In this document: positions 36,784-40,264 of the stretch, piece by piece
How positions within the stretch are numbered: position 1 is the stretch's first letter
How the letters are laid out: every line of letters begins with the position of its first letter
Origin: Candidatus Heimdallarchaeota archaeon
GTDB taxonomy: Archaea; Asgardarchaeota; Heimdallarchaeia; JABLTI01
Length of the DNA: 64,000 nucleotides
Assembly (NCBI GenBank): GCA_018238155.1
Contig: JABCTZ010000011.1
Coordinates: forward strand, 64,001-128,000
Direction of reading: 5' to 3'
Notes under the pieces: generated by a model
What the model was told of the DNA's origin: nothing
The model's database searches: none
What the model saw: only the letters and a program-made list of their open reading frames with translations
Made by a program: the position numbers and the translations under genes

Positions 36784-39648
36784 TTAATCACCCCAGAAAG
36801 GACGTGTACGTGAATATTCTTTTTCCGCATCAATTATTTCAGAATAGAACTCATAATCTTCCTTAGAGTAACTTTTCTGAAGAACTTTACTTGCACTTCT
36901 TGGACCTATACCTCGAGCAGAGAGGGCAATAATAGCTTTCTTTCCTGAAGCAATAACTAAATCAGCGCTTTTGAATCCTCTTTTGAGGATCTTTTCTTCA
37001 TCTGGGTCCAATTTTTCTCTTCGAAGGTGTTTTCTAATTATTGGATGAAGATCTTCATTATATGTTGATACCGCAGCAAGATAGCGAGCACCACACTTTG
37101 GACATTCAGGTTTATCATCAAGATTACCTACAGTGGAAATGACATTATATTTTCCACACCACATACAAATTAAGCGTATCTTTTTCTTGTCAAGTCTTTC
37201 CTGTACTTTCTTAGCTAGTTGCCGGTCTGGTTTTGAAGGGATAATAAATCCCGTAAATCTCAATTGATTCAGTGCCGAACGAGCAAGAGGAGAAATGTCT
37301 TCTAAAGATTTCTTTTCAATTAGAGCAAATTCAATCTCCCGTTTGTTTATTTTTTCAAGAACTTTCTTGGTTTGTTCAATATCTAATTTATCATGGAGAA
37401 GTTCTTGAAATGTAGAATCGGCAATTAGTGTTCCTTCATAAGCTCTAGCTATTCGTTTTGGAGATATTTTTCTTCCTTCCCAGTGTCCTCTAATTGCTCC
37501 GAAACGCTTTGCAATGTGAATAAACCGCCAATCATACATTGATGTTTGTGGGATAGTTCTTCGAAGAAGCTCTTCAACGAAATTTCCTCGCAATTCGCGG
37601 AAAGCACCTTCTATATGCTGAGGTTTGAGATAATATGGAAAACTAAGAATAATTCTATAGGAATCAGCTCGGATACTAATTGCACAAGCAAATCTAGCCA
37701 TTAACAAAGAACCAACAAGTTGCCCTAATGTTTGATTCACATTCGTACCAAAATCAGTATGGATAATACCAAAATTACCCAACGTCTCAATAACAATTCT
37801 TTTGTTGGTGGGCATTGGATTATCTTTCGAGTAATGATTAAATAGGTATTTAATAATTTCATCTTTGGAATCTTCGTCAATAGGATAATCGGTAAGCGCT
37901 TCTTTTGCATCATTCAAATCGTCAGATCCATTGAATTTCTCCCAAATCTTCCCACGTATTTCACCTACCTCTTGAGCTACTGAAAAGGGGACAGGAATTA
38001 GTTCGCCACCCCAAGCAGGAATAGCGCCAATAGGATTATGAACTGGTGCTACTTCAATTCTTTCTTCATGAATTGCAAGGATTTTCCAAGGAACACCTTT
38101 AACAATAAAAACAGTTCCAACAGCGCCTGAAATTTGAACAAACTCCTCATCAAGAGAACCTACAATGCGGTTCGTAGCAACATCATAGATTTGACATCGT
38201 TTCACATCTCTAATTGGACTAAGATTCCCAAAGTAATAATGTAGTGTATACTTTCTTCGAGTAACTTTACCATCGTCCTCTACCCAGAGAGTACCTAATT
38301 CCTTCATTAATCGAAGCAGTTCCCATAATTTCTCTTTGGTAATATCTTTGAAAGGATAAGCACGACTAATAATAGTAAATAGTTCATCAACCGTTCGAGG
38401 TGCATTCTCCATCAAAATACCTGCAATTTGATGGGCCAATACTTCCCACGGGGCGAAGTGTGGTTTTGGTGGCTCAAGTTCTTTGTTGAGAGCTTTGCGA
38501 CCAATTACTGCTGCTTCTAGAATATCTTCTGCATCAATAGTAATGAGTATACCATTACTAGTCTTGTCAATTTTATGACCACTTCTACCTATCCTTTGAA
38601 GGAGTGGAGCAATTTCTCGGCTGGACATCATTTGGATTACAGTATCTACAGAACCAATATCAATACCTAATTCAAGACTAGACGTGCAAATTATGGCTTT
38701 CAAATCACCACTTTTAAAACGGTCTTCAGCTTCTTTTCGAATATCTTTGGAAAGAGATCCATGATGAACACCAAAGGGAAAATCGGTGCCTATCAAACGC
38801 ATTCTGTTACCAAGTATTTCAGTAAATTGGCGAGTATTAGTAAAAACAAGAGTGTGAGCGTTCTCACGAATTATATCAATAACCTTTCTAGCTCGAGCAG
38901 CGGCTTCAGGACTCGAAAAAATCTTCTCTGCGAGCTCTTCATCTTCTTTAGAAATTTGAGGGTAAATAATTGATAGATTGATTGATTTAATTGTTGGCTC
39001 TTCAAGGATAGCACATTCTCTATCTTTTCCTACCAGGAGATTGGCGACTAAATGAGAATCACCAACTGTTGCTGAAAGACCTATCCTTTGGAAACTGTTT
39101 TTACAAAATTGTTCAAGACGTTCTAAAGAAAGAAATAATTGTGTCCCTCTCTTCGAATCAACAAGCTCATGAATTTCATCAATTATTACCCATGAAACGT
39201 TACGAAGATGCTGACCAAGACGTTTAGCAGTAAGAATAATACCCAACGTTTCAGGAGTAGTAACTAAAAGGTGAGGTGGGTCAAGTGTTTGTTTTCTGCG
39301 TTCATGTTGTGTTGTATCAGAATGACGGATACTAGTTTTAATATCCAACTGTTCACCAATATCGATAACTCGCTTGAAAATATCTCGATTAAGGGCTCGG
39401 AGAGGAGTGATATATAAAATATTGATACCTGGTTTAAGACCGGTAGATTCACGATCTCGAATAAGCTGATCAAAAACAGGGAAAACAGCTGCCTCAGTTT
39501 TTCCAGAACCTGTGGCACTAATAATAAGTGCATTTGTATTTTTTTGAAGTACCGGAAAGGCTAACTCCTGAATAGGGGTGAATTTTTCAAAACCAAGAGA
39601 AGTAATTACTTCTCGTAAGGCTGGACTAAAATTGCTGAAATCAAGCAT
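36784..39648 (-). CDS. lhr: ATP-dependent helicase Lhr (archaeal type)
   Basis: TGSGKT, PLRALNRD, TTPE, DEIH, LSAT, HHGSLS, SSLELGID, QRIGRSGH, C-terminal Zn ribbon and RGIGP; start set at ATG 39648. Confidence 0.92.
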   Translation of the reverse strand: MLDFSNFSPALREVITSLGFEKFTPIQELAFPVLQKNTNALIISATGSGKTEAAVFPVFDQLIRDRESTGLKPGINILYITPLRALNRDIFKRVIDIGEQLDIKTSIRHSDTTQHERRKQTLDPPHLLVTTPETLGIILTAKRLGQHLRNVSWVIIDEIHELVDSKRGTQLFLSLERLEQFCKNSFQRIGLSATVGDSHLVANLLVGKDRECAILEEPTIKSINLSIIYPQISKEDEELAEKIFSSPEAAARARKVIDIIRENAHTLVFTNTRQFTEILGNRMRLIGTDFPFGVHHGSLSKDIRKEAEDRFKSGDLKAIICTSSLELGIDIGSVDTVIQMMSSREIAPLLQRIGRSGHKIDKTSNGILITIDAEDILEAAVIGRKALNKELEPPKPHFAPWEVLAHQIAGILMENAPRTVDELFTIISRAYPFKDITKEKLWELLRLMKELGTLWVEDDGKVTRRKYTLHYYFGNLSPIRDVKRCQIYDVATNRIVGSLDEEFVQISGAVGTVFIVKGVPWKILAIHEERIEVAPVHNPIGAIPAWGGELIPVPFSVAQEVGEIRGKIWEKFNGSDDLNDAKEALTDYPIDEDSKDEIIKYLFNHYSKDNPMPTNKRIVIETLGNFGIIHTDFGTNVNQTLGQLVGSLLMARFACAISIRADSYRIILSFPYYLKPQHIEGAFRELRGNFVEELLRRTIPQTSMYDWRFIHIAKRFGAIRGHWEGRKISPKRIARAYEGTLIADSTFQELLHDKLDIEQTKKVLEKINKREIEFALIEKKSLEDISPLARSALNQLRFTGFIIPSKPDRQLAKKVQERLDKKKIRLICMWCGKYNVISTVGNLDDKPECPKCGARYLAAVSTYNEDLHPIIRKHLRREKLDPDEEKILKRGFKSADLVIASGKKAIIALSARGIGPRSASKVLQKSYSKEDYEFYSEIIDAEKEYSRTRPFWGD

Positions 39649-39873
39649 AAAAGTACCCTTGTTTTCATACGCTTTGCTTCTTCTTTTAAAATAAAAGATA
39701 ACTTCGAGAAATTTCTTGTAATGGAGATAAGTAATTATTGATATTTGTCTCTTTTCAATTTTCATTAAAACAAGAATAAGAAAAAAGAACGTGTTTGTAT
39801 AACTACTCTTTGTTATTTTAAGTGCATTTGTAAGAGAATGCTAGTATAACAGTAAAAAATGGGAGCAGCGAAT

Positions 39874-39978
39874 TTACTCTTCTTCTTCACCGCTGACAAG
39901 ATGATAACCCAGTGCTAAGAAACCACCGAGAATTAAAACCAGGTAAACAATGTAAAGGATAGTATTTGAGTCAATCAT
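39874..39978 (-). CDS. 34-aa single-TM protein, OST4-like (not in ORF track)
   Basis: MIDSNTILYIVYLVLILGGFLALGYHLVSGEEEE; alternative start at 39984. Confidence 0.6.
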   Translation of the reverse strand: MIDSNTILYIVYLVLILGGFLALGYHLVSGEEEE

Positions 39979-40117
39979 AATCATTCATCTCTTTCGACTT
40001 TTTTTTATAAGCGTATAAGTTCCTAATTTCTTCCCTTAAAAACTCTTTCAACCTTTTTATTATTTATTTAAATTAATTATAAAAACAAATGATTCAAAAA
40101 TATTAAGTGAGAATATT

Positions 40118-40264
40118 ATGGTTGAAGAAAAATCATTCTATAATGAAGATGATTTTGGTGATGATCCAAGTAAATTAACTGAAAATGATATCCCTAAATT
40201 ACTTTGGATGGTTGAAAAAAGAATGCAAAGATCGAATATGCTTTATATTGATAATATGCATTAG
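40118..40264 (+). CDS. Small hypothetical protein (48 aa, not in ORF track)
   Basis: MVEEKSFYNEDDFGDDPSKLTENDIPKLLWMVEKRMQRSNMLYIDNMH; GTGAG upstream. Confidence 0.4.
   Translation: MVEEKSFYNEDDFGDDPSKLTENDIPKLLWMVEKRMQRSNMLYIDNMH

Follow-up and report, generated by a model that had tools for sequence, protein, structure and literature searches.

A Conserved 34-Residue Membrane Microprotein of Heimdall-Group Asgard Archaea as a Candidate OST4-Type Subunit of Oligosaccharyltransferase

Introduction

Do Heimdall-group Asgard archaea possess a counterpart of OST4, which is the smallest of the subunits in the eukaryotic oligosaccharyltransferase (OST)? This question is raised by a short open reading frame (ORF) on contig JABCTZ010000011.1 of a Candidatus Heimdallarchaeota archaeon. 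The whole stretch of DNA that was analyzed, i.e., the window, comprises 64,000 nucleotides of this contig. In the original prediction, made from the sequence alone, an unannotated 34-aa ORF with one transmembrane (TM) helix was reported at 39874-39978 and compared to human and yeast OST4. This ORF is indeed present, on the minus strand, with the end coordinate including the TAA stop codon.

The Micro-Gene and its Conservation

Translation of the ORF yields a protein that starts with MIDSN and ends with GYHLVSGEEEE. Its hydrophobic helix spans approximately residues 6-28, with Y25-H26 at the C-terminal end, and is followed by the acidic tail GEEEE. The coding sequence and the signals around it have the following positions in the window.

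39874-39978, minus strand: coding sequence of the 34-aa single-pass membrane microprotein, with the ATG at 39978-39976 and the TAA stop at 39876-39874, as read from the sequence
40035-40049, minus strand: BRE/TATA-like element GAAAGAG TTTTTAAG, approximately 57-70 nt upstream of the ATG, a putative promoter
39999-40010, minus strand: second TATA-like run, TTATAAAAAAAA, 21-32 nt upstream of the ATG, found in the three closest genomes only
39854-39859, minus strand: oligo-T run (T6) resembling an archaeal terminator, 15-20 nt past the stop, a putative terminator

An alternative in-frame ATG is located at 39984, two codons upstream. As this codon is not conserved in the relatives, the product is likely to be the 34-aa form. 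The description of the ORF as unannotated holds: a collection of approximately 15 billion predicted proteins does not contain the exact sequence, and where relatives have been called, which is the case for few of them, they bear the label 'hypothetical protein' or no name at all. The length of the ORF by itself is meaningless here, because 82 ORFs of at least 20 aa occur within 6 kb in this region of the window.

The evidence for a real gene comes from codon-level conservation. When 41 related genomes were searched in six frames, full-length orthologues turned up in seven genomes besides that of the window, all belonging to its genus or family, with 79-97% amino-acid identity to the 34-aa protein. 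In the codon alignment of the ORF and its orthologues, the first, second and third codon positions are variable in 15, 4 and 32 of the 34 codons, respectively. The dN/dS ratio is 0.06-0.13 where dS is finite, the synonymous sites being saturated, and synonymous switches are present both for serine (AGC/TCT) and for leucine (CTN/TTA). Purifying selection is thus strong, and it acts over the entire length of the microprotein. An ORF without conservation in related Asgard archaea had been named beforehand as evidence against the proposal; the seven orthologues and their low dN/dS values point the other way. Since this conservation is far above chance, the observation is confirmed and it is practically certain that the ORF is a real gene.

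The flanks of the orthologues cannot be aligned, except for the TTTTTAAG box and the T-run after the stop. When the upstream regions are placed side by side, GAAAGAG-TTTTTAAG is the sole upstream motif that is retained in all eight genomes of the genus or family, while a run of T4-T7 follows approximately 10-30 nt beyond the stop in all eight orthologous loci. In other families, relatives of the micro-gene have similar A/T-rich boxes 25-45 nt upstream. The TTATAAAAAAAA run is probably not a conserved promoter, as it is restricted to the three closest genomes. Box and T-run together fit a micro-gene that forms an independent archaeal transcription unit.

The Wider Microprotein Family

To describe the family, three profiles or alignments were used: A1, built from the orthologues of the window protein; A2, consisting of A1 supplemented with matches from a second and a third family; and A3, an alignment of 23 members. 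The A1 matches in the second and third families are weak but full-length and correspond to small ORFs; the third family uses a GTG start. When 400 genomes of the phylum were searched with A2, ORFs of 34-38 aa were matched, with the following numbers of genomes per family.

Family f1: match in 7 of 11 genomes
Family f2: match in 30 of 31 genomes
Family f4: match in 8 of 12 genomes
Family f6: match in 3 of 3 genomes
Family f17, outside the class: match in 14 of 19 genomes

The microprotein family is widespread in the class, occurring in most of its families and additionally in one family outside it. The A3 members have in common an N-terminal MID or MDF, one helix, L23, [YF]25-H26 and an acidic tail. 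Residue 25 is a tyrosine, replaced by phenylalanine in two members, and H26 is found in all 23. Clear orthologues are also present in f3/g4 (L124, L126, L128, and L123), recognizable by an INFSY-like start and an NEEEE tail. They are longer, approximately 43-46 aa, and their Y-H is replaced by A-Y-L-L-F-[YH], with leucine in place of histidine, which implies that the histidine is not universal in the family. The original prediction regarded a variable Tyr-His pair as an argument against a relationship with OST4. On this point the outcome is mixed: [YF]-H is the best-conserved motif across most lineages, but its histidine is lost in f3/g4.

No distant bridge from the microprotein family to eukaryotes was found by searching 1.84 billion representatives exhaustively with A1; only two near-identical clusters of the same family were returned. 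A further match from this search, P0004, was rejected as a spurious repeat protein. A locus search with A1 returned close relatives alone.

Sequence Comparison with Eukaryotic OST4

The human and yeast OST4 sequences that were quoted in the original prediction are exact matches to the PDB entries 2LAT/6S7O and 1RKL/6EZN, respectively, and the ungapped identities pointed out there (M1, I2, L21, Y25, H26, and V28) hold. The microprotein resembles eukaryotic OST4 (PF10215; PDB 1RKL, 2LAT, 6EZN, 6C26, 6S7O, and 6S7T) in several respects. Both have a length of 34-37 aa and a single TM helix. Both have an acidic residue near the N-terminus, within MID in the microprotein and MI[ST]D in OST4. In the same ungapped register, both have [YF]-H at positions 25-26, where the helix ends on the cytoplasmic side. 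This is the most conserved motif in the microprotein family as well as in OST4, and insect OST4s likewise alternate between Y and F. There are also differences. Q6-L7 and G15 of OST4 have no equivalent in the microprotein, which has G18-G19 instead; its tail (GEEEE) is strongly acidic, whereas the tails of human and yeast OST4 carry lysine; it stays below all Pfam and HMMER thresholds; and the histidine has been lost in one Asgard family.

The check with the Pfam Ost4 profile (PF10215, gathering threshold 25 bits), which had been proposed together with the OST4 reading, turned out negative. With hmmscan, reported at E-values up to 10, the window protein matches neither Ost4 nor any other Pfam family, and in a six-frame scan of the window genome with the Ost4 profile, the 34-aa ORF is not among the matches. 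Scores above 25 bits are absent from all 301 Asgard genomes searched. When the A3 members are scanned singly, 1 of 23 matches Ost4, with an E-value of 0.044, which is at noise level; unrelated families of small TM proteins score equally well or better, such as FeoB_associated (E-value 0.0024). Similarly, the A1 and A3 profiles retrieved no OST4 chain from the PDB at E-values up to 10. Membership of the Pfam Ost4 family by sequence is therefore not established, and the microprotein is to be described as OST4-like by prediction. A failed HMM search discriminates poorly, however, because just 14.6-16.7 bits are reached between human and yeast OST4, whose orthology is beyond doubt.

In a profile-profile comparison using hhalign, A3 aligns with OST4 in exact register (13-34 with 13-34), with a probability of 35%, a P-value of 3.9e-4 and a score of 18.3. 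The result is identical whether the OST4 side consists of human and yeast sequences or of 14 metazoan sequences and yeast only. The search for metazoan OST4 was seeded with a 40-aa Drosophila-like sequence that served only for this purpose; all later sequences were derived from databases. When shuffling is confined to each of the three segments (N-terminal, TM, C-terminal), the mean score is 10.8 (sd 2.4) and 2 of 300 shuffles reach 18.3; of 300 full shuffles, none reaches the real score. The sequence similarity to OST4 is suggestive, without being proof of common descent.

The best sub-threshold Ost4 matches in the Asgard genomes were rejected as noise, driven by I/V-Y-H in long or start-less frames. 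One of them, in G017, encodes just 22 aa from its single possible GTG start. Other sub-threshold matches, L043 (G114:C15:5427-5480) and L031/L042 (in G176 and G140), are different small ORFs with a single helix and a basic tail (...VLIYHLISIPKRIRERRKST). These may be further OST4-like candidates in different Asgard lineages.

Predicted Complex with STT3

A possible association with the catalytic subunit was addressed by complex prediction, with the single STT3 of the genome (G000:C15, 696 aa; A5, 37 homologues) and the microprotein (A3) as input. Among named proteins, the closest relatives of this STT3 (P0005) are those of Candidatus Heimdallarchaeota archaeon. Three runs resulted in ipSAE values of 0.78, 0.77, and 0.79, with at least 93% agreement in contacts from run to run and a pLDDT of at least 79 for the microprotein. 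The best of three controls, including replacement of STT3, had an ipSAE of 0.01; the replacement partners had a pLDDT of 33-41 and are probably not TM helices. Of 80 solved complexes, 58 attain this ipSAE mark, as do 2 of 110 mismatched pairs; these counts hold only roughly here because user-built alignments were supplied.

In the predicted interface, residues 14-30 of the microprotein contact STT3 residues 3-29, 129-142, 410-422, and 443-470, which by hydropathy correspond to TM1, TM4, the end of TM12 and the last helix, TM13. The contacts with the lowest predicted error involve microprotein residues 14-25. The N-terminus of STT3 is cytoplasmic. The microprotein is predicted to run antiparallel to TM1, as residue 25 contacts STT3 residues 10-11 and residue 11 contacts residues 18-21, so the predicted topology is N-out/C-in. 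In yeast and human structures, Ost4 sits between TMH1 and TMH13 of Stt3, and its residues 18-24 are critical (reviewed in PMC7226087). The predicted packing between TM1 and TM13, with the predicted N-out/C-in orientation, would thus be a further likeness to OST4. A multimer prediction with the STT3 of this genome had been put forward as a check on the OST4 reading; it places the modeled interface at the OST4 site, TM1/TM13, with an ipSAE of 0.78 versus 0.01. This outcome may reflect the memory of the model for solved STT3-OST4 complexes. Given one strong but memory-prone prediction and the genomic plausibility, binding of the microprotein to STT3 at the OST4 site is considered rather probable.

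Other OST Subunits and Genomic Context

Besides STT3, the genome encodes homologues of other OST subunits. A ribophorin I homologue scores 56.8 bits, above the Pfam cut-off. A homologue of Ost5/TMEM258 of 67-74 aa (L119, G000:C1:51874-52074) scores 30.5-31.2 bits, with a cut-off of 27.4. An OST48/WBP1-like gene (OST48_N; L120, G000:C11:28177-28929) scores 40.6 bits, again above the cut-off, and is located on the contig of the window, approximately 75 kb from the micro-gene. Matches to OST3_OST6 (21.6-22.6 bits) and DAD (21.6 bits) are also present and fall under the Pfam cut-offs; an Ost3/6-like protein is encoded at G000:C41:300491-300817. Because homologues of ribophorin I, Ost5 and OST48 are encoded, a multi-subunit OST of the eukaryote type is plausible in this archaeon.

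In all eight genomes with long contigs that were checked (families f2, f3, and f4), STT3 is located 4-90 kb from the micro-gene, at the following distances.

G016 (C1:1944818-1951097) and G026 (C1:2186968-2193244): 4-5 kb
G030: 23 kb
G022: 37 kb
G012: 51 kb
G214, G262, and G025: 85-88 kb

In G000 and G152, the micro-gene and STT3 are on separate contigs. As the genomes are related and the counts therefore not independent, the linkage is just a hint of an ancestral one.

The immediate neighbors of the micro-gene in the window encode an Lhr helicase, a Y-family polymerase (DinB) and a PUA protein. No functional link emerged from the immediate gene contexts, in which Lhr, DinB, RPA, a prolyl oligopeptidase and a TetR-family protein were encountered. 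Among the immediate neighbors examined in the window genome and in other families, no glycosylation gene was found. Elsewhere, the micro-gene lies beside a convergent lhr in f17, beside RPA in f2 and beside different genes in f4. The longest reading frame of Lhr in the window extends over 36784-39765 on the minus strand, which places the ORF 108 nt upstream on the same strand.

Two details of the gene annotation in this region can be added. The first approximately 39 residues of the longest Lhr frame (36784-39765, minus strand) look non-genic; the real start is probably an internal methionine before LDFSNFSPALREV, which leaves a gap of approximately 225 nt between the micro-gene and lhr. Between the micro-gene and dinB, at 40118-40264 on the plus strand, there is an acidic ORF of 48 aa (MVEEKSFYNEDDFGDD...), without a match in Pfam.

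Interpretation

The best explanation for the microprotein is probably that it serves as an accessory subunit of the OST4 type in the oligosaccharyltransferase of this Heimdall-group Asgard archaeon. Yeast Ost4 stabilizes Stt3, and the stability of the Stt3-Ost4-Ost3/6 subcomplex requires Ost4. In this explanation, the micro-gene would be transcribed independently and translated into a single-pass membrane protein of 34 residues. The helix (approximately residues 6-28) would insert such that its N-terminus is outside and its acidic tail cytoplasmic, and would pack antiparallel to TM1 in a groove of STT3/AglB to which TM1, TM13, TM4 and the end of TM12 contribute. Once bound, the microprotein would stabilize STT3 as Ost4 does in yeast, and it may help to recruit an Ost3/6-like subunit. 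The EEEE tail could pair with basic cytoplasmic segments of STT3, i.e., the N-terminal KR and the RRKRR between TM12 and TM13. The original OST4 reading is thereby retained in part: the conserved gene, the [YF]-H motif and the predicted TM1/TM13 site speak for it, while the missing Pfam match, the hhalign probability of 35% and the loss of the histidine in f3/g4 do not. Whether the microprotein and eukaryotic OST4 share descent is a separate matter, for which the shared register, the motif and the modest profile-profile score suggest an even chance. In a bolder and somewhat more doubtful version, Heimdall-group Asgard archaea would assemble a true STT3-OST4-(OST3/6) subcomplex II, so that the smallest OST subunit would be pre-eukaryotic; its acidic cytoplasmic tail would pair with basic STT3 segments, a pairing that eukaryotes would later have altered, and the family would be nearly absent from annotations because the ORF is too short.

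The main alternative holds that the membrane microprotein is genuine and specific to Asgard archaea, is unrelated to OST4 and belongs to another complex or serves another function, its likeness being due to convergence or chance. This is possible, though it is held to be rather unlikely. The resemblance to OST4 was spotted post hoc, there is no significant match to Pfam Ost4 or to the OST4 chains in the PDB, and unrelated small-TM families match equally weakly. Moreover, the histidine is not universal, the tail is acidic rather than basic, and the immediate neighbors are genes for DNA repair and replication. However, true OST4 orthologues are barely detectable themselves, as illustrated by the human and yeast proteins, and the in-register hhalign score is reached by so few segment shuffles. 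The complex prediction is strong and reproducible and lies at the OST4 site, whereas the control with STT3 replaced collapses to 0.01. The other eukaryote-type OST subunits in the genome and the loose linkage to STT3 in several families argue against an unrelated protein as well. Single-helix proteins of the same size class are known from other bacterial and archaeal systems: KdpF, AcrZ, and CydX, for instance, are subunits that stabilize large membrane enzymes. The microprotein differs from these in that it has no significant Pfam match to them (AcrZ is matched with an E-value of 0.31, in 1 of 23 members) and its gene is not located beside their partner genes.

It is far less probable that the ORF is a regulatory uORF or leader peptide of the downstream Lhr helicase gene. 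Such a role would agree with the position of the ORF, which on the same strand precedes the longest Lhr frame by 108 nt, and with the adjacency of lhr and the micro-gene in family f17 too. In f17, however, lhr is convergent instead of downstream, and the neighbors are RPA in f2 and other genes in f4. In addition, the amino-acid sequence itself is under strong purifying selection throughout, and the terminator-like T-run of the ORF precedes lhr. This reading is already disfavored. That the ORF is an untranslated chance product of AT-rich intergenic DNA, where the 82 ORFs of at least 20 aa in 6 kb illustrate how plentiful short frames are, is refuted in practice by variation at 32 of 34 third versus 4 of 34 second codon positions, a dN/dS of approximately 0.1, the serine and leucine codon switches and homologous ORFs in at least five families.

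Earlier Reports and Significance

The idea of an OST4-type subunit in Asgard archaea is already in print. According to Eme et al. (2023, Nature 618:992, PMC10307638), Ost4 has homologues in most classes of Asgard archaea, and the original statement that no Asgard OST4 was known to have been reported is outdated in this respect. The proteins of that study and the microprotein come from the same phylum and have the same claimed function, and the microprotein family is probably among them. A difference is that the window ORF and most of its relatives are uncalled in public protein sets. The present analysis thus confirms the idea and describes it more sharply, and is not a discovery. In a 2024 study on the translocon of MK-D1, just OST1, OST3/6 and STT3 are listed (PMC11417166).

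If the microprotein is a true STT3-bound counterpart of OST4, the catalytic OST subcomplex would already have been multi-subunit in the archaeal ancestors of eukaryotes. In that case, the family would offer a very small, concrete target for co-purification, structure determination and complementation in yeast. Microproteins of this kind are systematically missed by gene callers, and tables on the presence and absence of eukaryotic signature proteins therefore under-count them.

A minor observation on public records concerns DATKZI010000022.1 (L135, G010:C22), which is titled 'Candidatus Bathyarchaeia archaeon'. This contig carries a micro-gene of the Heimdall type with 82% identity and groups with the genus of the window genome, so the label of the record is probably wrong.
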